Assembly: GCA_900539775.1 (NCBI GenBank)
Contig: UQDL01000001.1
Coordinates: 170,569 to 234,568, forward strand
Source: an uncultured Anaerotruncus sp.
GTDB taxonomy: Bacteria; Bacillota; Clostridia; Oscillospirales; Acutalibacteraceae
DNA: 64,000 bases
Direction: 5' to 3'
Made by a program: the position numbers and the translations under genes. Below, piece by piece: positions 11,002 through 63,289 of this stretch. How positions within the stretch are numbered: position 1 is the stretch's first letter; each line of letters opens with the position of its first letter. Under the pieces are notes generated by a model. That model was not told the DNA's origin. It was given only the letters and a program-made list of their open reading frames with translations, and ran no database searches.

Positions 11002-12525
11002 TCAGGTGTTTTTCTCTTTTTTATGGCGCTCGATAAGCTCCGAAAGCATTTTTTGATGCTGTTCCTTTGTGATTTCGTATTTAAGGGTGGGCAAAATCGC
11101 AAGCACCATTCCGATTGCGGGCGGAACGGTAATAAGAAACCACATTGCCCACGAATATTCGCCGTAATCCTTTGCAAAACTTGCGCCGTTTGCAAGAGCT
11201 TTATTCATGGCGTCTATATTAACATCCGTGTAACCGACGGCGGCAAAAACATAAGCCGAAATGATGGAAGCAATGCCTGCCGAAAACTTTGTGATAAAGC
11301 TTTGGCCGCTGAAGAAAATACCGTCCGGTCTGTATCCGTTTGTATATTCCTCGTAATCTATGCAATCGGAAATCATAACGGATTGGCAAACATTAACCGC
11401 GCCGATGCCCGCGCCCGAGCAAAGCAAAAGCACGCCGTCTATCGCCACCCAGCCGATTTTGGCAAGTTCCGTGGGAGCAACAAGAAATGTTGCAAACACC
11501 AAAGCGGTGGGCAAGCCTGCAAGGCCGGTTAAATTATACATTGTTTTAATATCAAGTTTTTTCATAAGTGCGGGGCAAATTATCGTGGCGGCAAACTGGC
11601 CGACAAAGAACCCGCCGCCTACTATTATAACAATCACAAGGCGGTGCACATCCGTGAAAGCGGTGGTGAGATCGCCCTCGCAATAATAATATGAAAACAG
11701 GGTCATAACCACCGTCATCATAAGCTGAATGGGCGAGCGAAGCAAACCGCTGATAAGAATTCTTCTGAAGGGCTTGCAGCGCCACATAAGAGCAAAGCTC
11801 TCTTTCATAGTTTTTGTTTCGCCGGAATTCGGCACGCGTTCCCTTGTGCCTATTCCCGCCAATTCAAACAGAAGCGAAGCAACCACCGTCATCGCCATGC
11901 CCACAACGATAAAGCCCTTTTGAGCATTTCGGTCAAGCCCGAAAGCGCCGTTTGCCGCCTGTGAAAGCGCAACTATCGAAACGATAACGGACGCCGCACC
12001 CACGGAGGCAACTATTCTGGCAAGGGAAATCAAATTAGCCCTGTCTTTTTCATTTTCGCTCATTCGGCTGATAATGCCCCAAAGCGGAATATCGCCCACC
12101 GTGTAGCTCATGCCCCACAGCACATAAGCGATTGCCGCCCACGCCACAATTAAAACCATGGCAGCGGAATTTCCGCTTTCTTTTGCGGCGGCATAATTGC
12201 CGTTTAAAAAGGCCACGCATGTGATAAGGCACACCGCGGGCGGAGCAAACAGCAGATAGGGGCGGCACTTGCCCCATTTTGATTTTGTTTTATCAACTAT
12301 TGAGCCCATCATGGGATCGTTTACCGCATCCCACACGCGGGCAAGCGCAAAAATCCAGCCAAGCGCAACGGCGGGCAGGCAAATAACATTTTGAAAATAA
12401 TAATAAAGCCCCGTTGCCACGATATTATATATCATATTTTGGCCGAACATACCGGTTAAAAACATCCCGGCTTCTTTTTTTGTGTAAGTGTTTTCCGCCG
12501 GCAGGGCGGATTTAACCTTAGCCAT
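11002..12525 (-). CDS. MFS glycoside-pentoside-hexuronide (GPH):cation symporter family sugar transporter
   Basis: GPH hallmarks DAVNDPMMGSIVDKTKSKWGKCRPY, 12 TM. The ORF track begins at 12657, but ATG at 12525 (MAKVKSAL...) is the first start after an in-frame hydrophilic leader. Confidence 0.75.
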   Translation of the reverse strand: MAKVKSALPAENTYTKKEAGMFLTGMFGQNMIYNIVATGLYYYFQNVICLPAVALGWIFALARVWDAVNDPMMGSIVDKTKSKWGKCRPYLLFAPPAVCLITCVAFLNGNYAAAKESGNSAAMVLIVAWAAIAYVLWGMSYTVGDIPLWGIISRMSENEKDRANLISLARIVASVGAASVIVSIVALSQAANGAFGLDRNAQKGFIVVGMAMTVVASLLFELAGIGTRERVPNSGETKTMKESFALMWRCKPFRRILISGLLRSPIQLMMTVVMTLFSYYYCEGDLTTAFTDVHRLVIVIIVGGGFFVGQFAATIICPALMKKLDIKTMYNLTGLAGLPTALVFATFLVAPTELAKIGWVAIDGVLLLCSGAGIGAVNVCQSVMISDCIDYEEYTNGYRPDGIFFSGQSFITKFSAGIASIISAYVFAAVGYTDVNIDAMNKALANGASFAKDYGEYSWAMWFLITVPPAIGMVLAILPTLKYEITKEQHQKMLSELIERHKKEKNT

Positions 12526-37050: not shown

Positions 37051-37210
37051 TATATTGTATTGTTCGTGCGCGTGGGTATTTTGCGCCCTGCGGGCATGTT
37101 TGTTAATGATTTATTCACAAATTCATTAACAAATTTTCCCCGAGCAGTTGCCTGTGCGCTTACAGAGGGCATGTTTTATGTTCCCAAATCATAAAAAAGG
37201 AGAGATGATT

Positions 37211-40200
37211 ATGAAAACGAGCAAACGATTACTCAGCCTTCTCTTGGCTGTGGTAATGGTGATAACAACTTGTTCAGTCGGCATGAGTGCTTTCGCGGCC
37301 GATAAGAACGATGATGTTTTCACCTATGTTACCGATGAGGGTAAAGCGGTTGATATTACATACGAATCGCTTAACAACCTTATCAACACCTACGCTCCCG
37401 AAATCATTAAGCTTCTCGGCGATAAGCTTACCGGTCTCGGTGTTAACGTAGATGAAGTTTGTGCTTCAGATAAGCCGATTTACGAGCTTTTGGCACAACT
37501 TTCTCCGGCGCTCATCAAGCTCATGGGCAGCAGCTCTGTTACCGATGAGGTTATCAAGGACATTCTTCTTGATGCCGGCATTATCGGAGACGATGTTGCA
37601 GAATCAGATCAGCTTGATGCCGTAAAGTTTGCATATGTTCAATATGCTTACCTTAATGATGCGGCAGCACCGATGAGCATCTGGAACCTTTATCAATTCT
37701 GCATGGATAATGAAAAAGCAGATGATAAAGATTTAAAGAACTACTGCAAAGATACCAAGGCTGTTCTTATTGATTTGCTTAAAGCTTTCGATGAAGCCTT
37801 CACAGTTGCAAAATTATCTGTTGACTCAGATTTCGCAACGGTTGAAGAGTATGTAAGAACTCAGGTAATCGGCGGCAGTCAGTTTGAAGAAAACGAATTT
37901 GCAGTTAACAATAAGGTTGATTACTTTGCACCTTATCTTTTAAGTGCTTCCTGCTACACGGCAGATGATGCCGGCAAGCTTGCAGAGGCTCTTAACGCAG
38001 GACTCAGCGGATCAATCACAAAGATTCCCGCTTCGCTTGCAAACGCAAAGGATGTTGTTGCACAGGGCAACGGCTTCAGCGGCAAAAAGCTTAGCGAAAT
38101 CAATGCTTCAAGTGATGCAAATGTTGCCGCATTCATCAACAAGGTTGTTTCACTTTGTAAAGCAGTTAATGCTCCTATCAGCGAAAACCCGTCACTCGGC
38201 GAGGCTGCATTCTGGTATTACAATCAGCCTATCAGAAGCAAAAACGCCACTCTCACTGCTGTTTTAACAAATCTCAGCGGCGAAGCAATAACAGTAAGCG
38301 ACGGCGGTATCACCACCTTTACTGTTCAGCCGGGCGAATATTTCTATGATGTATGTAAGCAAGAAGACCTTACATATGATGTATTTGCAGGTTTAACCGG
38401 CGGTGTATTCCCTGCAGACGCTGCAACGGATTCATTCTACTATGCGCTTTATGAAACCAGCTTTGTTTGGTCTGATAACATTTTTGATGTTTTCGGCTCA
38501 GTACCTTCGGAAGACGAAGCAACAAAGTGGATGTTCCAAAGCGAATTCACCGCAGAGGATTTCACAGCCATTAAAAACAGAGTGGCAGATTTGGTTGCCG
38601 CAAAAGGTATAGTAAAGCCCGCAGAAACAAAGGAAACAGATTTCCTTAAAGAGCAGGCTGCAAAGATTACAGAAGAAGAATTTATAAACGGTGTTGGTTC
38701 TGTTCCCGCTGTTACGGCAGACGGCAGATTCTCAAACTTCCTTAAATTCTATTTCTTAAACGAAGTATTCTCAAGTGTTCCGCTTGCAGAAATTGCAGGA
38801 TGGGACGGTGCAGAGGAAACCATCAGCGATGCCATGAAGGTTGCAGGAACTCACGCAGCCAACATCATCAGAGGCTATTCTGAATTTACACTTTCAAAAG
38901 CCGTTGTTCCCACTATTTCGGCAGCATATAAATGGGATGACGTTAAGCCGTCAGACAAACTTGCAATCGAAATCGTTAACAACAACATCAACGGCTATGT
39001 TGATTATGTAAGAAAAGGCATCCCCGGCGTTAACATCAACATATATGCAATCGCAAAGGACATTATTGCAAACCTTACCGATTCGCTTACATTGGATACA
39101 CTTCTTGAAAAAGTTACAGACATTTACAAGAAGCTTGCAGAAGACCCGGTTAAGACCATATTTGAACTTGTTCCCGTAATCGTTGTTGTTCTTGACGATG
39201 TACTTGTTCCGCTTCTCTTTAACCAAGACGGTCCCGACGAAGCAGATATGTATTACGGCCAGATCAACGGCATTGTTGCAAACCTGCTTAACGAGAAAAA
39301 TCTTACTCAGTCAACAGGCAGCACCGTGGGCATCGGCAAAATCGGCTGGAACCTTAATGAAGTTCTTCCCACATTGCTCCACTGGCTCAACGGCGATAAC
39401 AGCTACACCTATACCTATTATAATGTAGACACAACAAACCCGGACAAATATATTTACAACACACCTTCAACAGGCGCTTTCGGCACTAAGTATGATAATG
39501 ACGGTAAAGAGCTTAACCATGTTCCCGTTATTCTTAACATTTATGCCGTTGATAAGGCTCTTGCGGCCGCTTCCGCTTCAGACCTTACAAACGGCAAGGA
39601 TGACATGCTTAAAGAGCTTCTTGCTTCCGTTATGAACCTTGCCGTTGAAAATGTTGACAATTATGTTGCAGAGCACGGCAACGATGTTGGCAAATATATT
39701 GTTGGCCAAGACGGCACAAAGCAAATAGTATTCAGAGGATTAAACAATGTGCTTGTTGCTCTTCCAAGCATCATCAGCAACATTGGCGAATCATTCCTTG
39801 CTCAATTCGATGTTCCGAGCGATTGGAGCTTCGGCGAATTTAAAACAGATGCAAACGGTTGCAAATACAATGTTTCCGCAAAAGAATTCAAAGATCTTTG
39901 CAAAAACAATTCACCTGCATCTGAAGTGCTTAAAACATTTGTTGATATGTTCGTTAACAACTGGTTTAACGCACTTACCGATTTCTTAAACGATGTTGTT
40001 TCAACAAACAACACAATCACAACCAAACTTCCTGTTGTTGCTTCTCTTCTTCAGGCTCTTGACCTCTTCGGCGAAACAAGTATTCTTACCGATGCGCTCA
40101 ACGGCTTCTTCCTTATGAACAGAGAGCACAAGGATTCATTCACATTTGAGCCTCAGCCAAACGGCTATGTTGGCATCAGCACACTTTCCGCTTACTTCCT

Positions 40201-43200
40201 TCTTTGCAATGTTGAGCCGCTTGTAACATTCATTATGAGCGTTGTTAACGCAAATAAGGGCACAACAGACGGAAATACGGTTTCACTTGCATCACTCGGA
40301 AACGACTTTGTTGCTCAGGCAGCGGCAAATGATGTTCTTGATTCAATTGATATCAACAAAATTACAAAAGAATATTCAAACATTGTTTCCGACAGCGAAA
40401 ATGTTAAAGCTGCGGACGAATTATTAGATGCAGTTGACGAACTTCTTTCAACTCTCCTTTCTAACACATATATTGACGGTTTCACCGCAGATAAGGCAGA
40501 CGGTATCCTTTCCGCCGCAGTAACATTCCTTGTTAATCACTTTGGTGTTGACACTGCAAACGATATCCTTGATCTTGTTATGCAGTATGTTAAAACAATC
40601 AATGAAGGAAATGTTGCAACAGGCAACGGTTCGGTTGATGCCAAGAAGGTTTACTGCAAAGAAAACCTTTCAAACCTTGTTACACAAACCTATGTTCTTG
40701 CCGAAACAATTATTGACAGCCAGCTCAATGTTAAGGGCGACACCAATAAGCTTGTAAACAGCGCAATCAAGGGCATTATTTCCCCAAGCGCCATTGCTGT
40801 TCGCTCTGATTCAATCAACAGCAAGATCATGAAAGAGCAGAGCTGGACCGATCTTTCGGCAACCGGTTATGCAAAAGACCTTGGCTACAAAAACCTTGTT
40901 GCAGGCGATAAGAACACCTTCTTTAAAGATCTTATTGACTCACTCGGTGTTATTCCGGCAGTATTAGGCACAGTTCTTTGTGCAACAGGCTACTACAACG
41001 ATGTATTAAGCCCGATTCTTTCGGATGTTTGCGGCAATCTTGAAGTTTCTTACACAAGAACTCTTTCAGCCAATGCAAACGGTAAAGATGCAACATTCGC
41101 AGTTATTGATGTTGTTTCCAAGATTTTAAACAAAGTGCTTGAGGCTCCCGCTTCTTCACTTCTCGGCTTAATCAGAGGCCTTGCTATTAACTTTACAGAC
41201 GATAAGTTCGGCGTAACGGTTAAGGCAGCGGTTGCTCCGATTACAAACGAAATCAACGGTGCTGCTTCAATAGTTTCAACGCTTTCACCGTCACTCGGCG
41301 AAACAGTTTCCGGCTATGCAACACTTGTTAATGATTTTGTTAACACCAACATTCTTAAAGAAGACAATTACTTTGTTAACACAATCAATGCTATTCTTAC
41401 CGCTGTAGGCAAGGATGCAATTGACATTGATCTTAACTCATTGCTTGCTCTCGTTGGCAACACATCAAATGCAGAGCTTCTGCTTCTTGTTTACACTGTA
41501 GGCGTAAGCGTTATCACAAACAGCTCACTTCTCAGTTCATTGCTCAACGGCAAGTATCCCGGACTTGTTGATATGATTTCTAAGCTCTCTCCGAGCAAGC
41601 TTCTCACAATCATCAAAGAGGTTATCGCATCAACACAGAATCCTAAGGAAATCGTTTGGACCTTCACTAACTACGCTGCTCAGGCAAGCAACACATTCTC
41701 TTATCCCAAGGGAATCACAGCAACAGATGCCAACAACGCAGTAAGCAGCCTTGACGATCTTGTTAAAAACCTCTTCCCGCTTCTCAAGAGCTTCGGCGTT
41801 CTTGATGCAAACGGACTCAATGATATCATCAACGACAATCTCTTCACAAATGCTCTTATCACAAGCATTGCAACAGGCGTTTACGGCGCAATCGAAAAGA
41901 GCGTTGATCTTATCTCCCCTGCCGACCTTGCAGAATATCTTACAGATGCAAGCTACGGCGCAACTTACACATCTGCAGCCAACACACTTAAGGGCTGCGC
42001 TAAGTGGAGCGATGTTAAATCAGTTAACTGGGGCTTCACAGACGGCTCTTCTTCTGCACAGCAGGGCTTCGTTAATGCACTTGCAGCTCTTTGCAGACCT
42101 GTAAACGACATTGTTGCAGCTCTTCTTGCAGGCGGCGATGTTAACATCGGCGAGCTTCTTCAGTCTGTTCTTGATAAGCTTGAAATCAACACAACAACTT
42201 ATTCCGGCGACGTTAGAATTAAAATTTCTCTCAACAACAACATTCTTAATGTTGAGACATATAACACCGCTGCAACAGATGCACAAACAAACACCATTAA
42301 GGTTAATCTTAATGACATAATCGCTCAGCTTAAAGAGCTTGGCATCAAGGGCGGCAACGGCTACGAAAGCGCAATCGTTCCCCTTCTTGAAGCTCTTATG
42401 TGCGATAACATTAAGACTCCTGCTCAGTATCTCAACGATTATAAGAAGGCTAAGGATAACCTCCTTATCAACATTCTTAATCCAATCATCGGTTTCGTAA
42501 ACAAAGTTGCAGACAAACCGTTTGACACTCTTACGGCTGTTCTTCCGAACCTTGCTTACTTTATCGACAATAACGGCCTCGGCCAATTCCTTGATAACTT
42601 GCTTTCACCCGTTACAGACATCGTTAAGGTGCTTGAAAAGAACGGTGTAAGCGTAGACACAATCATTTCTGCAATTGCAGGCAAGTCACTTCCCGATCTT
42701 ATCGGCGGCCTCATCGGTGCAAACCTCAGCGGCCTTGATTTAAGAATCGGCAACCTTGCAAACTGCAACATTCAGGATTACCTTGCAGACATTATCAATG
42801 CTGTTCTTAAGAGCAACAATCTCAACATCAAGATCAGCAAGATTGATTTTGCATTCCTTGCAAGCCTTGGCGATCTTAACACAGTTTACGGCGCAGCAGG
42901 CACAACAAAACAAATCACAGCCAACCAAGGCCAGGTGCTTGTTACATTGCTTCGCTACATCGAAAATGTGCTTATCAACAACGCTTCTGCTATCAACAAG
43001 CTTCTTGGCGGCATTGATGCAATCAAGAAAAATGCAACAATAGGCGGCATCCTTGACAGCGTATTTGCAACAATTGCAACAGCTAACAGAGACGATATTG
43101 TTCTTGCAATTTTCTACTTCCTTCTTGCTCAGCCAACAGACACATTCTTTGATTATTCAAACTTCAAATACAAGGAATATCCGTTTGAATATCCTTCAAC

Positions 43201-44479
43201 GGTTGATGTTGATTTCTTAACCGTTATCGGCCCGATGCTTGACGGCCTTGTTGGCGGCCTTGTTCCCGGCGGACTTTCAAGCCTTGTAACAGCTAATGTT
43301 TACAAAGACAACATCATCAGCTCTTTGGCAACAGGCCTTTACGGCGCAGTTGAAAAGGTTAAGGTTGGCAATATGAGCCTTACCGATCTTCTTGCACAAA
43401 CAGGCATTGATTTCTCAACAGACAATGTTGCTTCACTTCTTACTGATAAGACATACGGCCAAAGCTTTGAAGCAGCAGCCAAAACAATTAAGAGCGCAGG
43501 CTCTTGGGCAAATGTTAAGGCTGATAAGCTTTCTTGGGGCGTAACAGACAGAGACAGCTTCTTGCATGCTCTTTGCGCAGCACTTCGCCCGATTTACGGC
43601 GTGCTTGATGTGCTTCTTAACGACGGCTCACTTGGCCTCTTCAATCTTATCTATCTTCCGGGTTCGGACGGATATACTTCCACAATCGTTCCGATCATGG
43701 AGGCATTCGGTCTTTACAACATTAAGACTCAGTATCAGTACAGACAGGATATGAGCAAGGAATACGATGCTATTCTTCTTGACATTCTTAACCCGCTTCT
43801 TGACAAGGTTGAGGATATCCTCAATGCTCCTGTTCAAACTCTTATGAGCATGCTTCCGAACCTTTCACTCTTCTTCGCAAATGACGGATTGCTTCAGGTT
43901 ATCGAAAACCTTACAACTCCGATCAGAGCTCTTCTTGATGCGGTTAAGCCAATTGCAAATGTTAACGACATTCTTGTGGCTGCCGGCCTCAATATTCAGA
44001 AGCTTCTTTCGGGCTATGGCCTTGTAGGCAGCGATTATAAGTTTAATATTTATGATCTTTCTGCTTCACTCAAGCCGCTCATCGGCTCTGAAAACATCGT
44101 TGGCCTTCTTAATAAGATTCTTGGCTTAATCAAGATCGGCGGTTCTCCGCTTGGCATAGAGCTTATGCCTATTGATTGGCTTCAGCTTGCTTCCCACGGT
44201 GAATTCATCGTTGACGAAGCTTCTCAGGCTTCCACCACAGGCAAGAGAATTTATGTTAAGGCTGATCCAAGCGAAGTTCTTATTGCATTCCTTCGTTACC
44301 TTATCAACACAGTAAACTATAAGGATAACTACAGCACCATCAGCAACCTCATCGGCGGCCTCATCGGCGGCGCAAGCAGCTCCGTATCTCAGGTAATTGA
44401 TCAGGTTCTCGGAATGCTTTCCGGCGACACGGATAAAGTTATCTCCGATCTTTGCGGACTTCTTCAAACTCTTGCTTAA
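37211..44479 (+). CDS. giant (2422-aa) secreted alpha-helical repeat protein, no anchor or catalytic motif recognised
   Basis: AAGGAGAG RBS then ATG 37211 (MKTSKRLLSLLLAVVMVITTCSVGMSAFAADKN, signal peptide). Internal ~400-aa tandem duplication in the C-terminal third (NALITSIATGVYGAIEKS... versus NIISSLATGLYGAVEKV..., and GYESAIVPLLEALMCDNIKT... versus GYTSTIVPIMEAFGLYNIKT...). Strong terminator downstream. Confidence 0.75.
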   Translation: MKTSKRLLSLLLAVVMVITTCSVGMSAFAADKNDDVFTYVTDEGKAVDITYESLNNLINTYAPEIIKLLGDKLTGLGVNVDEVCASDKPIYELLAQLSPALIKLMGSSSVTDEVIKDILLDAGIIGDDVAESDQLDAVKFAYVQYAYLNDAAAPMSIWNLYQFCMDNEKADDKDLKNYCKDTKAVLIDLLKAFDEAFTVAKLSVDSDFATVEEYVRTQVIGGSQFEENEFAVNNKVDYFAPYLLSASCYTADDAGKLAEALNAGLSGSITKIPASLANAKDVVAQGNGFSGKKLSEINASSDANVAAFINKVVSLCKAVNAPISENPSLGEAAFWYYNQPIRSKNATLTAVLTNLSGEAITVSDGGITTFTVQPGEYFYDVCKQEDLTYDVFAGLTGGVFPADAATDSFYYALYETSFVWSDNIFDVFGSVPSEDEATKWMFQSEFTAEDFTAIKNRVADLVAAKGIVKPAETKETDFLKEQAAKITEEEFINGVGSVPAVTADGRFSNFLKFYFLNEVFSSVPLAEIAGWDGAEETISDAMKVAGTHAANIIRGYSEFTLSKAVVPTISAAYKWDDVKPSDKLAIEIVNNNINGYVDYVRKGIPGVNINIYAIAKDIIANLTDSLTLDTLLEKVTDIYKKLAEDPVKTIFELVPVIVVVLDDVLVPLLFNQDGPDEADMYYGQINGIVANLLNEKNLTQSTGSTVGIGKIGWNLNEVLPTLLHWLNGDNSYTYTYYNVDTTNPDKYIYNTPSTGAFGTKYDNDGKELNHVPVILNIYAVDKALAAASASDLTNGKDDMLKELLASVMNLAVENVDNYVAEHGNDVGKYIVGQDGTKQIVFRGLNNVLVALPSIISNIGESFLAQFDVPSDWSFGEFKTDANGCKYNVSAKEFKDLCKNNSPASEVLKTFVDMFVNNWFNALTDFLNDVVSTNNTITTKLPVVASLLQALDLFGETSILTDALNGFFLMNREHKDSFTFEPQPNGYVGISTLSAYFLLCNVEPLVTFIMSVVNANKGTTDGNTVSLASLGNDFVAQAAANDVLDSIDINKITKEYSNIVSDSENVKAADELLDAVDELLSTLLSNTYIDGFTADKADGILSAAVTFLVNHFGVDTANDILDLVMQYVKTINEGNVATGNGSVDAKKVYCKENLSNLVTQTYVLAETIIDSQLNVKGDTNKLVNSAIKGIISPSAIAVRSDSINSKIMKEQSWTDLSATGYAKDLGYKNLVAGDKNTFFKDLIDSLGVIPAVLGTVLCATGYYNDVLSPILSDVCGNLEVSYTRTLSANANGKDATFAVIDVVSKILNKVLEAPASSLLGLIRGLAINFTDDKFGVTVKAAVAPITNEINGAASIVSTLSPSLGETVSGYATLVNDFVNTNILKEDNYFVNTINAILTAVGKDAIDIDLNSLLALVGNTSNAELLLLVYTVGVSVITNSSLLSSLLNGKYPGLVDMISKLSPSKLLTIIKEVIASTQNPKEIVWTFTNYAAQASNTFSYPKGITATDANNAVSSLDDLVKNLFPLLKSFGVLDANGLNDIINDNLFTNALITSIATGVYGAIEKSVDLISPADLAEYLTDASYGATYTSAANTLKGCAKWSDVKSVNWGFTDGSSSAQQGFVNALAALCRPVNDIVAALLAGGDVNIGELLQSVLDKLEINTTTYSGDVRIKISLNNNILNVETYNTAATDAQTNTIKVNLNDIIAQLKELGIKGGNGYESAIVPLLEALMCDNIKTPAQYLNDYKKAKDNLLINILNPIIGFVNKVADKPFDTLTAVLPNLAYFIDNNGLGQFLDNLLSPVTDIVKVLEKNGVSVDTIISAIAGKSLPDLIGGLIGANLSGLDLRIGNLANCNIQDYLADIINAVLKSNNLNIKISKIDFAFLASLGDLNTVYGAAGTTKQITANQGQVLVTLLRYIENVLINNASAINKLLGGIDAIKKNATIGGILDSVFATIATANRDDIVLAIFYFLLAQPTDTFFDYSNFKYKEYPFEYPSTVDVDFLTVIGPMLDGLVGGLVPGGLSSLVTANVYKDNIISSLATGLYGAVEKVKVGNMSLTDLLAQTGIDFSTDNVASLLTDKTYGQSFEAAAKTIKSAGSWANVKADKLSWGVTDRDSFLHALCAALRPIYGVLDVLLNDGSLGLFNLIYLPGSDGYTSTIVPIMEAFGLYNIKTQYQYRQDMSKEYDAILLDILNPLLDKVEDILNAPVQTLMSMLPNLSLFFANDGLLQVIENLTTPIRALLDAVKPIANVNDILVAAGLNIQKLLSGYGLVGSDYKFNIYDLSASLKPLIGSENIVGLLNKILGLIKIGGSPLGIELMPIDWLQLASHGEFIVDEASQASTTGKRIYVKADPSEVLIAFLRYLINTVNYKDNYSTISNLIGGLIGGASSSVSQVIDQVLGMLSGDTDKVISDLCGLLQTLA

Positions 44480-45010: not shown

Positions 45011-45547
45011 ATGTATTGTAAAAATTGTGGTAAGCCGATGAATGATAATCAGGCAATCTGCTTGAATTGCGGCGTAAATGCCGGGTGCGGCAATAAATTT
45101 TGCGCAAACTGCGGAGAGCCGGTGAACGAAAACGCCGCCGTTTGCACGCATTGCGGCGTTGCAATCAAAAAAATCGCACAGCCCCAAGCTGGTGCGGTTT
45201 TGAGCAAAGAAGAGGCATATAAAAAGCTTGCCGAATACGAAAAAACAGCGGCAATCATTTGGTTTGTTATAGCCGCGCTGCAAATTATCGGCGGCATATT
45301 TACCTATTACGCCCCTGTTCTTGTGGGTTGCTGGAATATTTACACGGGAATTCAGCGCATCAAACACAGCAAAACCCTTGCCGATATGCCTGCCGGAATA
45401 TATGAGTATTATGAAAAGCAAGGCACAACAAATATCATTTTCCTTGTTGTTAATATTATTTTGGGCGGACTCATCGGCGGTATCGCCTCGGGTTATGATA
45501 TTTATATCAGAAACTTCGTTATGAAAAACAAAGAAGCATTTGAATAA
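45011..45547 (+). CDS. double zinc-ribbon membrane protein (two CxxCG...CxxCG ribbons plus two or three C-terminal TM helices)
   Basis: AAAGGAG RBS. MYCKNCGKPM...CLNCG and FCANCGEP...CTHCG. Hydrophobic AAIIWFVIAALQIIGGIF and IIFLVVNIILGGLIGGIASG. Confidence 0.65.
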   Translation: MYCKNCGKPMNDNQAICLNCGVNAGCGNKFCANCGEPVNENAAVCTHCGVAIKKIAQPQAGAVLSKEEAYKKLAEYEKTAAIIWFVIAALQIIGGIFTYYAPVLVGCWNIYTGIQRIKHSKTLADMPAGIYEYYEKQGTTNIIFLVVNIILGGLIGGIASGYDIYIRNFVMKNKEAFE

Positions 45548-45551
45548 CGCA

Positions 45552-45587
45552 CGGGCTGCAAAGTGATTTGCAGCCTTTTCTTTTTTG
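45552..45587 (+). terminator. rho-independent terminator (gggctgcaaa / tttgcagcc plus T-run)
   Basis: 9-bp stem followed by ttttcttttttg. Confidence 0.75.
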
Positions 45588-45810
45588 CAGATTGTGTGTT
45601 TGATTTTGCCGTGCGCTGCAAAACCGAAGCTGCACAAAATATATTTTTTCTTTACAACATTGACTGCACGGGTGTATAATGCTATTGTACGCACAATATT
45701 TTCTATTATGCCGATTTTATTTGCTGTGCGCAGAGCGGTGCCGAATATCGCCGCACAAAGCCAAATCGGTTTGGAGGTAACAGTGTGAAAAATCAAACTA
45801 TTTACATTAT

Positions 45811-45941
45811 ATTGCCTTCAAAATTTGCCTGAGGCATAATTTTTGAATGGCTGAAATCATCGTTACGCCTGTTCGGGCAACGCAGGCAATCAGGTGATTT
45901 TTAACAAACTGTTTGTTGCCTGAAAGGCTATGGTGATTACT
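45811..45941 (+). promoter_or_regulatory. conserved promoter+5' leader element, copy A (upstream of the M20 peptidase gene)
   Basis: Shares a ~130-nt conserved block with 47437-47565: ATTATATTGCC...GGCATA...CCTGTTcGGGCAACgCAGG...AGGTGATTTTTAA...TTTGTTGCCTGAAAGGCTATGGTGATTA. It contains TTGCCT-17-CATAAT, a hairpin, and GGCAAC/GTTGCC alternative pairing next to an AAAGG-ATG. Confidence 0.55.
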
Positions 45942-47417
45942 ATGAAAAAAGCATTATTGGCAATTCCCGCCGCAATAGGTGCAGGCCTTGCGGCAACGGC
46001 TGTTAAGGCAGCCGCTTTTAAGGCAGAGAAAAAAAGCGCAGCTCAGCTGCCGCCGGAGAATGTTGATGTTGAAAGAGCCGCCAAGCATCTTTCGCAGGCA
46101 ATTCAAATCAAAACCGTTTCAAGCGATGACTACAGCAAGGTGGACTGGAACGAATTTGAAAAATTTCACGCTTTCTTGGCAGAAGCTTTTCCGCTGATAG
46201 CAAAAACACTGAGCCGTGAAAATGTGAGCACGGCAAGCCTGCTTTATAAATGGCAGGGAACGGATGAAAGCCTGAAGCCGATTGCATTTTTATCGCACAT
46301 GGATGTTGTGCCGATTTCAGAGGGCACAGAGCAGGATTGGGAGCATCCGCCGTTTGAAGGATATATTGACGGCACCTTTGTTTGGGGCAGAGGCGCACTT
46401 GACATGAAAAATCATCTTATCTGCCTTATGGAAAGCATTGAAACCTTGCTTGAAGAGGGATTTGTGCCCGCACGCACCGTTTATCTTTGCTTTGGCCACA
46501 ACGAGGAAATAGTTGCATCTGCCACTTCCGGCGCAAACGACCTTATGGAAACGCTGAGAGCCCGTGGAATTGAATTAGACAGCATTATAGATGAAGGCGG
46601 AGCAATGTTGCCTGCTGAAGTAAAAGGCATTTTAAACGGCAAATTAGCGGGAATAGGCGTTGCCGAAAAAGGATATGCCGATTTCAGGCTTTCAATCAAA
46701 GCAAAAGGCGGCCATTCATCGCAGCCGCCGAAGCACACAGCAATAGGCGAAATATCCAAAGCCGTTGTTCGCCTTGAAAAAAATCAATTTAAGGGTGAAA
46801 TTCCCGATTACTTAAATAAAATGTTTATGGAGGTTGGCAGGCACTGCACATATCCGGGCAGATTTGTTATGTGCAATTACAAGCTTTTGCAGCCGCTTGT
46901 TAAAATAGCAATGCTGCAAATTCCGCCGGCAGCATCAATGGTGCACACCACAATGGGCGTTACAATGAGCAGCGGCAGCCCTGCCGCAAATGTGCTGCCG
47001 CAAAGCGCAAGCGTAACGGTTAACTGCCGCATTATGCCGGGCGAAACAATTGCTTCCACCGAGGAGCACATAAGAAAAGCAATTAAAAACAACAATATTG
47101 AAATAGAGCTGTTAAAGGGCAAAGAGCCTTCTCTTATTTCACCCACGGATACCAAATCATTCAAAACAATAAAAGAAATCGTTGAGGCAACAAACCCAAC
47201 GGCAATAGTAACCCCGTTTCTTGTTATGGGCGGCACTGACGCTTACCACTATGAGCCGATTTGCGAAAACATTTATCGCTTTGCGCCGTTTACCGTGCCC
47301 ACAGAGCTTTTGCTTACCACACATTCAACAAACGAAAGATGCCCGATTGAGCAGCTTGGCGAAGGAATAAGCTTTTTCAAGCGCTATATAAGAGCAATGA
47401 CAGCCGAGGAAAAATAA
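45942..47417 (+). CDS. M20-family metallopeptidase (ArgE/DapE/carboxypeptidase G2-like) with N-terminal signal/anchor
   Basis: MKKALLAIPAAIGAGLAATAVKAAA then SHMDVVP, WGRGALDMKN, FGHNEEI (M20 metal-binding motifs) and the dimerisation-domain region. In-frame ATG 45930 (MVIT) comes from the conserved leader. ATG 45942 is the more likely start. Confidence 0.75.
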   Translation: MKKALLAIPAAIGAGLAATAVKAAAFKAEKKSAAQLPPENVDVERAAKHLSQAIQIKTVSSDDYSKVDWNEFEKFHAFLAEAFPLIAKTLSRENVSTASLLYKWQGTDESLKPIAFLSHMDVVPISEGTEQDWEHPPFEGYIDGTFVWGRGALDMKNHLICLMESIETLLEEGFVPARTVYLCFGHNEEIVASATSGANDLMETLRARGIELDSIIDEGGAMLPAEVKGILNGKLAGIGVAEKGYADFRLSIKAKGGHSSQPPKHTAIGEISKAVVRLEKNQFKGEIPDYLNKMFMEVGRHCTYPGRFVMCNYKLLQPLVKIAMLQIPPAASMVHTTMGVTMSSGSPAANVLPQSASVTVNCRIMPGETIASTEEHIRKAIKNNNIEIELLKGKEPSLISPTDTKSFKTIKEIVEATNPTAIVTPFLVMGGTDAYHYEPICENIYRFAPFTVPTELLLTTHSTNERCPIEQLGEGISFFKRYIRAMTAEEK

Positions 47418-47436
47418 CGCAAAAACTTTCGCTGCT

Positions 47437-47565
47437 CGAATTATATTGCCCTTGCTGTTTTCCGAAGGCATAGGCAGAAAACACCGTTTACACCTGTTAG
47501 GGCAACACAGGATTTAAGGTGATTTTTAATAAAATATTTGTTGCCTGAAAGGCTATGGTGATTAA
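47437..47565 (+). promoter_or_regulatory. conserved promoter+5' leader element, copy B (upstream of the membrane-protein gene pair)
   Basis: See copy A. Here the conserved ATG (47555) opens a 19-codon uORF MVIKWILKKAHLCIHSAAP that overlaps the main start at 47566 out of frame. Confidence 0.55.
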
Positions 47566-48336
47566 ATGGATTTTAAAGAAAGCACATTTATGTATACACT
47601 CGGCGGCGCCGTAGTTGCTTTTGTTTTGGCACAATCCGTATTTTTTCTTGTGCGTGCTTATAAACAAGGCAAAAAAATAGGCATATCCGAAAAAACCATG
47701 AAAAACACAATCGTTTCAAGCTCGCTGTTTTCGATTGCCCCGTCAATTTCTATTTTGGCAACGATTATAACACTTTCCGGTGCACTCGGCCTTGTGCTGC
47801 CGTGGATAAGGCTTACGGTTATAGGCGCAATAACATATGAAGTGCCTGCCGCAGAAAGCGCTTTAAATGCCCTTGGGCAAATCGGCGGCCTCTCACAAGA
47901 GGTTACGGACCCGATGCAGTTTTCAACCATTGCATGGGTTATGACTCTCGGCTCCGTTATGCCACTGGTGTTAATTCCGTTTATGCTTAAATTCATTCAA
48001 AAAAAGGTTGGCGGAGTTGCAAGCAAAAATGCTGCATGGGCAAACACAATGAGCGCCGCTGCATTTATCGGTTTGATCAGCGCATTCATCGGCAGAGCCG
48101 TGCTCGGCAGCGGCGAGCCGGATCAGCTTGGAGACGGTGCAGGAGTTATGAGTGTTACTGCGCTTGTCGTTTCCATGCTGTGCATGATTGGCTTTATGAA
48201 GCTGCAAAAGAAGAAAAACATAACTTGGCTTGAGCCGCTGGCAATGCCGCTGAGCATGTTTATTTCGCTTGCCGTGGTAACGGTTTTAAGCCTTGTTTTA
48301 CCGGGCAACCTTGCATTGCTTGAATGGAGGGGCTGA
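47566..48336 (+). CDS. polytopic membrane protein of unknown function (first of a pair)
   Basis: 256 aa, ~7 TM. No family recognised with confidence. Confidence 0.55.
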   Translation: MDFKESTFMYTLGGAVVAFVLAQSVFFLVRAYKQGKKIGISEKTMKNTIVSSSLFSIAPSISILATIITLSGALGLVLPWIRLTVIGAITYEVPAAESALNALGQIGGLSQEVTDPMQFSTIAWVMTLGSVMPLVLIPFMLKFIQKKVGGVASKNAAWANTMSAAAFIGLISAFIGRAVLGSGEPDQLGDGAGVMSVTALVVSMLCMIGFMKLQKKKNITWLEPLAMPLSMFISLAVVTVLSLVLPGNLALLEWRG

Positions 48337-48337
48337 T

Positions 48338-48994
48338 ATGAACAGTTATAATGAACGCACCCACATAATCGGCCGCTTTTGGATAATAACGGCGCTGTTT
48401 GCGTTTTTAATGATTCCCGTGGCAATTTCATTAAAGCTTAATGCATTTCCTCAGGCATCCGTTGTGCTTAAAGGCCTTGCACCGATTGCGCTGCTGTTTT
48501 ATCCAACGGCGGTTATAGAGGTTTGCACCTATTCGCCGATGCTTGGCTCCGGTGCAACATATATTGCCTTTGTTACAGGCAATATAAACAATTTAAAACT
48601 GCCCTGCGCCCTTTCCGCAATGGACAGTGCAGGAGTTAACCCAAACAGCGATGAAGGCGAAATTCTTTCCACAATTGCAGTTGCGGCATCATCAATAGTT
48701 ACAACCTTTATTATTGCAATAGGCGTTATTGCCTTTGCTCCGTTTTTGCCACGCATAACTGCGCCGGATTCCGTGCTTGCGCCTGCATTCAGGCAGGTGG
48801 TGCCGGCGCTTTTCGGTGCTCTCGGAATGTCTTATATGGCAAAGCACTTTAAAATCAGCATTGTGCCGATTGCCGTTATATGCCTTATGCTTCTGTTTAA
48901 GGGTGATTTGGCTGTTGGAGTGCTTATTCCCGTTGGAGTTATCGTTTCGCTGCTTGCGGCGCATTTGATGTTTAAAAAAGGCTGGATTAAATAA
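48338..48994 (+). CDS. polytopic membrane protein of unknown function (second of a pair)
   Basis: ATG 48338 is 1 nt after the upstream stop (MNSYNERTHIIGRFWIITALFAF...). ~6 TM. The ORF track extends the N-terminus into the upstream gene (48293), judged to be overlap. Confidence 0.55.
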   Translation: MNSYNERTHIIGRFWIITALFAFLMIPVAISLKLNAFPQASVVLKGLAPIALLFYPTAVIEVCTYSPMLGSGATYIAFVTGNINNLKLPCALSAMDSAGVNPNSDEGEILSTIAVAASSIVTTFIIAIGVIAFAPFLPRITAPDSVLAPAFRQVVPALFGALGMSYMAKHFKISIVPIAVICLMLLFKGDLAVGVLIPVGVIVSLLAAHLMFKKGWIK

Positions 48995-62488: not shown

Positions 62489-62570
62489 TCAACACATAAA
62501 AACAAAAGTGAGCCCCATAAAACAGTGGCTCACTCATAAGAAATAATTGCTCAATAAATCAAACAACGGC

Positions 62571-62616
62571 AAAAAGCGGCTTGTCCTTAGTTTAGGCAAG
62601 CCGCTTTTAATTTTTT
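62571..62616. terminator. bidirectional terminator (aaagcggcttg / caagccgcttt plus T-run)
   Basis: 11-bp stem between convergent genes. Confidence 0.7.
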
Positions 62617-63289
62617 ACTTTTTACTTTTTCTTGCAGAAACGGGAAAATCGTTTTTAACATATGTTTCCCACACATTCATTCTGTCGTCCTCATCAATTT
62701 CACGAATAACCCTTGCCGGCACACCTGCCGCAATGCTGTTTGGCGGAATGTCTCTGTTTACAACCGCACCTGCTGCAACAATGCTGTTTTCGCCGATGGT
62801 TACTCCGCCGCAAATCGTGGCGCTTGAGCATATCCAGCAATTATCCTTAATTGTTATCGGCAAGGCATATTCAAGATCATGTTTACCGTCCGGATAATCG
62901 GCAGGCAATCGTTCCTCTGCAATGAAAGGATGATTAGGCGTTGCAAGAGTTACATTTGCACCTATCCAAACACCGTTTCCGAAAGTGATCGGCGCAACAT
63001 CAAGAAAGGTGCAGTTATAATTTGCAAAGCAGCCTTTGCCAACATGAATATTAACGCCGTATTCGCAATAAAACGGAGCAAACACGCAAAAATCCTTGCC
63101 CTTTGCAGACGGAATCAGCCTTTCAAGAGCACGCTGCTTTGTTTTAAACCTCCACACGGCAATTTTATTAAATCTGTTGCACCTTACAAGCCCAAGTGCA
63201 TGCTGCTTAAAAATATCCTTGCTTTCTGAATTATAAAGCTTGCCCGAAATCATTCTGTCCCAATCACTGAGATTATTATACACTGCCAT
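62615..63289 (-). CDS. maltose/galactoside O-acetyltransferase family (left-handed beta-helix hexapeptide repeat)
   Basis: MAVYNNLSDWDRMISGKLYNSESKD (MAA/LacA N-terminal pattern), hexapeptide repeats IGANVTLATPNHP...ICGGVTIGENSIVAAGAVV. The start is uncertain; the ORF track extends to 63355. Confidence 0.7.
   Translation of the reverse strand: MAVYNNLSDWDRMISGKLYNSESKDIFKQHALGLVRCNRFNKIAVWRFKTKQRALERLIPSAKGKDFCVFAPFYCEYGVNIHVGKGCFANYNCTFLDVAPITFGNGVWIGANVTLATPNHPFIAEERLPADYPDGKHDLEYALPITIKDNCWICSSATICGGVTIGENSIVAAGAVVNRDIPPNSIAAGVPARVIREIDEDDRMNVWETYVKNDFPVSARKSKK

Follow-up and report, generated by a model that had tools for sequence, protein, structure and literature searches.

What are the two similar blocks of DNA that precede two adjacent genes, for an M20 peptidase and a DUF5058 membrane protein, in a genome of an uncultured Anaerotruncus sp.? 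The blocks lie in a 64,000-nt stretch of contig UQDL01000001.1 (hereafter, the window). A sequence-only reading had taken them for a duplicated promoter and leader of ~130 nt, an RNA or leader-peptide switch co-regulating both transcription units. The comparisons described below give another answer. The blocks are members of a dispersed, orientation-specific and highly structured repeat that occupies the gap between the Shine-Dalgarno sequence (SD) and the start codon and brings a new SD with it. They are probably two insertions of a non-coding repeat of ~157 nt that is mobile, or was so recently, in gut Acutalibacteraceae and 'Eubacterium' (Oscillospirales).

The similarity of the blocks at 45811-45945 and 47437-47570 is real: their pairwise alignment has a mean column identity of 82% and contains a single 10-nt gap. 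A diagnostic 19-mer and a diagnostic 28-mer each occurred exactly twice in the window, where shuffled sequences gave an expectation of 0, and a covariance model (CM) run with filters off over the whole 64 kb returned just the two blocks, termed copies A and B. A third candidate at 62495-62660, a 16-bit CM match, was rejected as it is a terminator region. The reported extent has to be corrected: copy A is longer (45782-45938), a 5' hairpin AGTGTGA-AAAA-TCAAACT having been missed. Its boundaries were set from empty sites and tandem junctions. The parts of the two copies are as follows.

45782-45938, + strand: copy A of the repeat, full length, AGTGTGA...ATGGTGATT (nhmmer 184 bits; CM 174 bits, model positions 1-177).
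45773-45781, + strand: left flank of copy A, the native peptidase SD GGAGG and the left part of the original spacer (TAAC), from comparison with the sister genomes L001-L003.
45782-45805, + strand: hairpin H1 (AGTGTGA-AAAA-TCAAACT, one mismatch in copy A) and segment x' (ATTTAC).
45812-45851, + strand: long hairpin H2, GCC-TTCAAAAT-TGCC ... GGCA-ATTTTTGAA-GGC, overlapping TTGCCT (45812-45817) and CATAAT (45835-45840).
45855-45938, + strand: 3' domain of copy A, made up of P1, P3, P2b and an A/U-rich linker.
45855-45863 with 45930-45938, + strand: helix P1 of copy A, whose 3' strand holds the SD GGUGA (45932-45936).
45867-45871 with 45883-45887, + strand: hairpin P3 of copy A.
45874-45881 with 45915-45922, + strand: pseudoknot helix P2b of copy A.
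45892-45904, + strand: A/U-rich linker of copy A with GGUGAUUUUUAA.
About 47419-47563, + strand: copy B, between the peptidase stop (47415-47417) and the DUF5058 start (CM 125 bits; alignment; helix table).
47469-47474, + strand: -10-like hexamer CATAGG of copy B.
47479-47487 with 47555-47563, + strand: P1 of the intact 3' domain of copy B, with SD GGUGA (47557-47561).
47493-47497 with 47507-47511, + strand: P3 of copy B.
47499-47506 with 47540-47547, + strand: P2b of copy B.

The 3' domain of copy A had a minimum free energy of -33 kcal/mol (z = -4.0), and its x' segment was partly complementary to the host flank GTAA. The 5' end of copy B was degenerate, with a decayed H1 and an H2 broken by a 10-13-nt deletion. 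Few polymorphisms, and clustered ones, were present among 14 contigs of the window species (L201-L214) in the equivalents of 45770-45805 and 47479-47511. Those at copy A fell in the native SD that the insertion displaced, which read GGAGG or TGAGG, as well as in the flank (AAC/AAT) and x' (ATTTAC/AATTAC); those at copy B fell in the anti-SD, which read AAACACC or AAATCACC.

To follow the history of the locus, 80 genome loci around DUF5058 homologues were fetched from metagenome-assembled genomes of Oscillospirales. In most of them the peptidase gene, the DUF5058 gene and a third gene formed one packed operon without the element, in which the peptidase-DUF5058 gap measured 10-30 nt. In most relatives the SD of the third gene lay within the last DUF5058 codons (...GAATGGAGGGGNTAA/TGA). 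The sister genomes L001-L003 were ~95% identical to the window in DUF5058 and shared its promoter and leader, and their peptidase site was empty, reading GGAGGTAAAATTT-ATGAAAAAAGC (also written GGAGGTAAAATTTATGAAAAAAGC, GGAGGTAAAATTTATG). The native GGAGG and the peptidase ATG, adjacent there, are ~157 nt apart in the window. Because the SD runs straight to the ATG in the sister genomes, copy A was taken as an insertion between SD and start codon. The element was also absent before the peptidase gene in 13 further relatives. Copy A is thus recent and lineage-specific, and it separates the peptidase gene from its native SD. The peptidase-DUF5058 gap of the sister genomes proved to be a decayed copy B, shortened in L001 and retaining both ends (TGTGAAAATCACAC ... 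AAAGGCTACGGTGATT) around an internal deletion in L002 and L003, which makes copy B the older insertion. It is old and decayed at its 5' end, and it now forms the spacer between the two genes and supplies the DUF5058 SD.

Further insertions were found in the same set of relatives. L002 had a full copy before an MFS transporter gene as well, and in the more distant genomes L043 and L058 a copy lay between the DUF5058 gene and the third gene (nhmmer and CM). The third-gene site read GGAGGGGTTAAAATGAAC in L044, where it is empty, and GGAGGGGTT-element-AATATGAAC in L043, where it is filled; the original spacer was merely split in two, without duplication. Three different gaps of one operon are therefore occupied by the element in different lineages. 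Between distant hosts the element DNA was more conserved than the flanking genes. Old copies decay, as seen in copy B with the L001-L003 remnants and in argC copies with a degenerate pseudoknot, which argues against host-level selection on the RNA. The loss of the pseudoknot from old copies, with just the SD segment kept, suggests that it is the element, and not the host, that benefits from the structure.

The size of the family was assessed by scanning metagenome contigs with the anchors ATATTGCC-N(85-115)-GAAAGGCTATGG, which gave at least 119 stretches. Profile and CM searches identified at least about 89 of the 119 listed as true copies and the rest as chance matches. A profile made from three copies had at least 96 matches in the genome loci and metagenome stretches, and the CM had 60 in the de-duplicated locus subset. 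The element is ~157 nt long and non-coding, with open reading frames (ORFs) whose frames are not conserved, and is represented by at least about 90 copies at about 40 sites. A single sample, ERZ825137, contained at least six copies on contigs of similar coverage. The named hosts were Acutalibacteraceae, Ca. Fimenecus or 'Eubacterium sp.', and no copy was present in the phage, plasmid and viral-contig collections, the sole viral pattern match being due to chance.

The placement of the copies was highly regular. Among the matches listed, every copy had the orientation of the following gene and began 2-5 nt past the host SD. At least 39 distinct downstream genes were recorded; all of them start 0-4 nt past the end of ...GGTGATT, and for 31 of 39 the distance is exactly 3 nt. 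A core SD 4-mer was present within 14 nt in 33 of 45 distinct left flanks, compared with 5.1 +/- 2.1 at random positions in the same loci, and most of the remaining flanks had weaker purine runs. The downstream genes were functionally unrelated and encoded an MFS transporter, an M50-like protease, an Mrp/NUBPL ATPase, a VWA protein, BioY, a methyltransferase, ArgH, LeuD, an aminotransferase, ArgR, NusB, PyrE, a YfbR-like nucleotidase, HPr (ptsH), a CDF transporter, ArgC and hypothetical proteins; PyrB, LeuC, Dtd, MtnA and an excisionase-like gene were recognized by eye. With at least 39 unrelated genes downstream, the amino-acid or dipeptide ligands suggested earlier are not implied.

Copies were also found head to tail, with the junction GGTGATT^AGCGTGA (here and below, ^ marks the point of insertion), so that the second copy stands behind the SD of the first (L133, L192 and L106). 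These tandems lie at 4483-4808 in L133, at 12139-12466 and 13728-13788 in L192 and at 4-178 in L106, and the leuC/leuD region of L192 contains three copies in 1.7 kb. The upstream tandem copy in L192 and L106 ends in ATGGGAAT instead of ATGGTGATT, which matches the x' segment (ATTC) of the next copy. A strongly diverged copy in L172 (1106-1228, - strand; 34 bits) is 5'-truncated to the pseudoknot domain alone; it is flanked by two genes from an arg cluster in which a full copy precedes argC. One left flank was joined through the element to different downstream genes across contigs in two cases (L129/L089/L189 and L146/L096/L122).

The ends of the element were then compared with its target sites. 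No terminal inverted repeats were found: the ends AGTGTGAAAA... and ...CTATGGTGATT are alike in direct orientation (TAGTGTGA and TATGGTGA), and each end pairs with an internal partner instead. A 3-nt target-site duplication was considered and rejected, as the 3 nt on the left and on the right differ at most sites. H1 has the consensus AGYGTGA-loop-TCACRCT and its stem continues into the host flank, where x' pairs with the last host bases (x). On average 2.52 contiguous pairs were formed, against 1.37 +/- 0.13 when flanks and copies were re-paired (0 of 5000 permutations). Examples are GGAT/ATCC at four sites and GATT/AATC at five, and x/x' can differ at one and the same site (GGGTT/AACCC in L043 and GGAT/ATCC in L058).

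The target consensus, GGRAAT^AWTATGAAAAA, resembles the junction of the element's own ends, GGTGATT^AGTGTGAAAAAT. Right flanks matched the 5' end of the element at 7.67 of 15 positions, compared with 6.53 in 664 ordinary SD-bearing gene starts (0 of 5000 resamples), and left flanks matched its 3' end at 4.64 of 12 positions, compared with 3.68 in the same starts (2 of 5000). The left flank had no fixed target 4-mer; it ended in T at 30 of 33 sites, with A/T at -2 (...WT^). With AGU-GUG-AAAAA as its first bases, the element imitates in turn a spacer, a start codon and a second codon rich in A. Because the 5' bases mimic a start and the 3' bases supply an SD, the junction of the ends resembles a translation-initiation region. 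None of about 45 sites listed was in a neutral intergenic position; as selection alone would leave such insertions elsewhere, it does not account for the placement, and insertion must be targeted.

The structure of the element was investigated on a MAFFT alignment of 35 representative copies, in which helices H1, H2, P1, P2b and P3 were tested. Paired bases filled 90.6% of the cells, compared with 33-47% in slid controls, and 17 pairs (69 cells) had changes on both sides; none of 500 shuffles reached any of these measures. As the representatives are related, the shuffle controls overstate significance, and more weight should go to the slid controls and to the presence of multiple independent pair types. 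H1 covaried (GTGTGA/TCACAC and GCGTGA/TCACGC), as did the 13-bp H2, with five pairs changed on both sides, and RNAalifold independently recovered H1, P2b and H2, the last with a GCC/GGC extension. Since the CM alignment mis-registers P1 in divergent copies, a script scored P1 and P3 in each copy separately. P1 occurred in five compensatory types (AAUCACCAU/AUGGUGAUU, AAUUCCCAU/AUGGGAAUU, AAUUUCCAU/AUGGAAAUU, AAUUGCCAU/AUGGCAAUU and AAUCGCCAU/AUGGCGAUU). The P2b types were CAGGCAAC/GUUGCCUG, CAGGCUAC/GUAGCCUG, CCGGCUAC/GUAGCCGG, CUGGCUAC/GUAGCCAG and CUGCCCAC/GUGGGCAG. P3 was found as GCCUG/CAGGU, CGCCUUA/UAAGGCG, CGCCUUG/CAAGGUG and CGCCUUCU/AGAAGCG, and lengthened to 8-10 bp with compensation. 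Compensatory changes support all five helices.

The 11-nt loop of P3 is taken up by the 5' strand of P2b except for 1-2 bases at either side that stay unpaired, and P3 and P2b therefore form an H-type pseudoknot with a third loop of 27-35 nt that is rich in A and U. The complementarity of GGGCAAC and GTTGCC pointed out by the sequence-only reading is real and corresponds to P2b, which covaries across the family, and the first hairpin of that reading is P3. The two had been presented as mutually exclusive structures at the ribosome-binding site. They both covary and are sterically compatible as a pseudoknot, so they are not simply mutually exclusive. P1 (9 bp, across 66 nt) closes the 3' domain and pairs the GGUGA SD with an upstream anti-SD; its 3' strand AUGGUGAUU is predicted to be the replacement SD of the host gene, at a working distance from the start codon. 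G.U pairs in several copies, two of them in P1 of copy A, assign the fold to the + strand, as mRNA or as the top DNA strand, and the structure could function at the level of either RNA or single-stranded DNA. A small hairpin GCC-NGAAA-GGC of 3-4 bp lies about 10 nt from the right end, and the linker (U)GAUUUUUAAU(G/A)AAC was conserved even in the divergent subfamily. A GCCU/AGGC helix in the minimum-free-energy folds competes with P3; its AGGC is fixed by the search pattern, which makes covariation uninformative there. A decoy-SD switch, with an internal GGUGAUUUUU competing for the anti-SD, was discarded for want of covariation with the anti-SD in divergent subfamilies. As had been noted earlier, the element matches no known riboswitch class: Rfam 15 gave no match at the gathering threshold and chance-level matches at E <= 10.

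A promoter had been proposed in both blocks. The hexamers of copy A, TTGCCT-17-CATAAT, score 9/12, which supports the proposal there, while the CATAGG of copy B is poor and the hexamers are not conserved in the divergent subfamily. Of 47 representative copies, 30 had TTGCCN-17-CATAAT. The -10 forms part of the 3' arm of H2, where a two-base bulge yields CATAAT, and the divergent subfamily (L043, L099, L101, L103 and L108) keeps H2 through compensatory changes and has no -10. Copy A thus plausibly has a promoter, for copy B this is doubtful, and the family as a whole is not defined by one. A transcript from the predicted +1, 6-7 nt past CATAAT, would carry just the 3' domain, as this +1 is located just upstream of it.

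The conserved ATG at 45930 and 47555, read earlier as the start of MVI peptides, is the first triplet of the P1 3' strand AUGGUGAUU. The AAAGG assigned to it as ribosome-binding site is just 2 nt away and cannot serve as an SD. The in-frame MVI start of copy A and the 19-codon upstream ORF of copy B are by-products of the SD-holding helix. The frames of all small ORFs differ between copies. The real starts are predicted at 45942 (peptidase, MKKALL...) and 47566 (DUF5058). Three candidate leader peptides (a GTG ORF at the 5' end, a leaderless ATG 6 nt past CATAAT and the MVI ATG) were rejected, as their frames differ between copies and their stops vary. Translational coupling, with P1 opened by ribosomes that initiate at the GUG behind the host SD, was rejected as a general mechanism: in the commonest subfamily this ORF stops in H2, ~20 nt before P1. 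Gene callers often start proteins at the ATG within the element and so add MVIT-M, MVII-M or MVNN-M (P0137-P0150, P0203-P0205, P0218-P0222). Lengths with and without the extension are 495 and 491 aa for the peptidase, 313/314 and 310 aa for ArgC, 137/138 and 134 aa for NusB and 200/201 and 197 aa for BioY. These MVI.M extensions are a systematic annotation artefact, which could be used as a marker of the element.

Our preferred interpretation of the two blocks, insertions of a mobile or recently mobile repeat, may be outlined as follows. A recombinase or transposase encoded elsewhere would integrate a circular or single-stranded form at sites like the element's end junction, and the insertion would be tolerated through the rebuilt ribosome-binding site. 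The main subfamily may add an outward promoter (TTGCCN-17-CATAAT), and the folded 3' domain (P1 and the pseudoknot) would limit or condition translation of the host gene by hiding the SD. Whether this amounts to a new class of mobile element, one that homes to translation-initiation regions with a trans-acting recombinase and installs a portable SD-sequestering pseudoknot module with an optional promoter, as a mobile riboregulator that puts unrelated genes under one signal, is a more tentative matter, and we would put it forward as a conjecture.

Several observations weigh against this interpretation. Mobility is inferred just from comparisons between species and from the number of sites; within the window species both copies were fixed in 14 contigs, with no presence/absence polymorphism. 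The empty and filled peptidase sites do not match base for base, and the element, running from AGTGTGA to ATGGTGATT, has boundaries known to within 1-3 nt. The 1.7 Mb of fetched loci contained no autonomous partner (orphan ends with a gene between them) and no transposase or recombinase partner. The anchor pattern fixes 20 columns (ATATTGCC, GAAAGGCTATGG), which carry no information, and 3'-truncated copies are invisible to it. The variable joins of flanks and genes may reflect recombination between copies, or assembly chimeras at the repeat. An SD-hiding helix is odd for an element that needs its host genes expressed, and the promoter, the use of the SD and its sequestration are all read from the sequence.

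In the best-surviving alternative, which we consider rather unlikely, the helices are signals for single-stranded DNA transposition, the element derives from an IS200/IS605-type or other HUH transposon (a PATE), and any effect on RNA is incidental. The element shares with IS200/IS605 and PATEs the lack of inverted termini and of target duplication and strictly strand-specific insertion, and its ends may likewise be defined by hairpins, although the right end offers just a 3-4-bp hairpin or the long-range helix P1. The left-end hairpin whose stem continues into the flank, the small GCC-NGAAA-GGC hairpin about 10 nt from the right end, folding that tolerates G.T pairs and works on the + strand only, and the decay of old copies all fit such an origin. 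IS200 moreover hides its own ribosome-binding site in a stem-loop. What separates the element from this group is the target, which has no conserved 4-5-nt left word (tetranucleotide), just ...WT^, and the geometry of its ends: the left hairpin is at the very boundary and not some way inside, and IS200/IS605 ends are not known to have a closing helix of 9 bp that spans 66 nt, or a pseudoknot whose linker measures 27-35 nt. No Y1 transposase is linked to the element; a tblastn search of the 1.7 Mb of loci with an IS200 TnpA sequence found no match, which is weak evidence, as a partner could lie anywhere in the genome.

An interpretation in which the host uses the element as a general riboregulator, with one signal (temperature, a global metabolite, a protein or a small RNA) acting on the pseudoknot or P1 and the spread of copies building a regulon, fares worse and is improbable. 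The layout is riboswitch-like, with an H-type pseudoknot within an SD-hiding helix and with covariation, the linker is conserved even in the divergent subfamily, and copies precede many biosynthetic genes (arg, pyr, leu). As in preQ1-II, SAM-II/SAM-V and guanidine-III riboswitches, the pseudoknot is directly upstream of, and coupled to, an SD predicted to be sequestered, and both helices covary. In contrast to those classes, there is no Rfam match and no coherent gene set, the distribution is patchy and mobile, and old copies decay. The genes concerned are heterogeneous (HPr, NusB, MFS, VWA, excisionase-like and hypothetical proteins), the SD segment is all that persists in orthologous old copies, from which the pseudoknot is gone, and most relatives run the same genes without the element.

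A riboswitch or leader-peptide switch specific to this operon and duplicated for co-regulation, as first suggested, has very little left in its favor. Two copies in one operon, alternative pairings in which P3 and the GCCU/AGGC helix share bases, and the absence of an Rfam match would agree with it. Yet nearly all relatives have the packed operon without the element, which instead precedes at least 39 unrelated genes, so that co-regulation of the peptidase and the membrane-protein pair does not hold; the small-ORF frames are not conserved between copies, and the 'start' ATG is inside a helix without a usable SD. A simple local duplication of the promoter region can practically be dismissed: within the family copies A and B are most closely related to one another and share GGGCAAC where all other copies have AGGCAAC, but at least about 90 copies occupy about 40 sites in other genomes and the copy B remnants in L001-L003 predate copy A.

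Returning to the element as a mobile repeat, its closest known counterparts include small intergenic repeats that are co-transcribed, namely ERIC/IRU of enterobacteria, Correia (CREE/NEMIS) of Neisseria and RUP/BOX/SPRITE of pneumococci. These families have terminal inverted repeats and mostly TA or other target duplications, and they occur in both orientations at variable distances from genes. The element resembles them in being 100-200 bp long, non-coding, dispersed in many copies, strongly folded when transcribed and often located in operons or 5' untranslated regions; some of them, like the element with its predicted promoter, carry outward promoters and alter the expression of neighbors. 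Unlike these repeats and classical miniature inverted-repeat transposable elements, it has neither inverted termini nor a duplication, occurs in one orientation within a few nt of the start codon, and brings a replacement SD.

A target that resembles the joined ends, a fixed orientation, tandem copies and the absence of duplication are also features of the attP/attB cores of integrases and of the targets of IS30 and IS110/IS1111. The element differs from these in that no recombinase gene is known for it and its site, rather than being unique in sequence, is a degenerate functional motif of SD, spacer, start and A-run that stands before hundreds of genes. The bridge RNA of IS110, a structured non-coding RNA beside the gene for a DEDD recombinase, has loops that are complementary to both the target and the donor. 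In the element, complementarity of 3-5 nt was seen between x' and the left flank, a segment matching the right flank was not found by eye, and at no copy was there an adjacent gene as a partner.

Full-text literature searches and searches for the sequence itself returned no description of the element or of such a target specificity, and the repeat family is apparently undescribed. If confirmed, it would be a family specialized on the 5-9 nt that separate the ribosome-binding site from the start. Insertions there should normally kill expression, which the element would survive by means of its own replacement SD. Abundant human-gut Clostridia would then translate dozens of genes with housekeeping and biosynthetic roles (arg, pyr, leu, nusB, ptsH) via one pseudoknotted leader. 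The element causes systematic mis-annotation of start codons, and metagenome assemblies may be mis-joined at its copies. At the peptidase locus an apparent candidate for an operon-specific riboswitch is removed, and the finding is of more interest than a duplicated promoter, for a reason other than the one proposed.

The remaining features of the locus belong to the host operon.

45651-45680, + strand: native promoter of the M20 peptidase operon, TTTACA-18-TATAAT (promoter scan 11/12), the host's and not the element's.
45942-47417, + strand: M20/M25/M40 peptidase gene (Pfam PF01546, PF07687), start ATG 45942 (MKKALLAIP...), 3 nt past copy A.
47566-48336, + strand: DUF5058 membrane protein gene (Pfam PF16481, E = 1e-74), ATG 2 nt past copy B.
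48338-48994, + strand: third operon gene, a 218-aa membrane protein (gene calls), SD GGAGGGG inside the end of the DUF5058 gene.

The native promoter and leader are conserved in the sister genomes L001-L003, which are free of the element at the peptidase site. Peptidase orthologues begin MKKALL directly after their own SD, and gene callers differ on the start in the window (495 or 491 aa). The DUF5058 protein had 1227 homologues. The native peptidase leader of ~90 nt (45651-45781) has a hairpin CCGATTT...AAATCGG just 5' of the SD, and L001-L003 have a hairpin of different sequence at the same place; it may be the operon's own regulatory leader. Upstream of the peptidase operon, a gene for a double zinc-ribbon membrane protein (45011-45547), called at lengths of 103-178 aa among strains, is followed by a clean intrinsic terminator (45553-45576). 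Further upstream, a very long ORF of 2443 aa at 37148-44479 (2421-2422 aa according to the gene callers) has no Pfam match on record.

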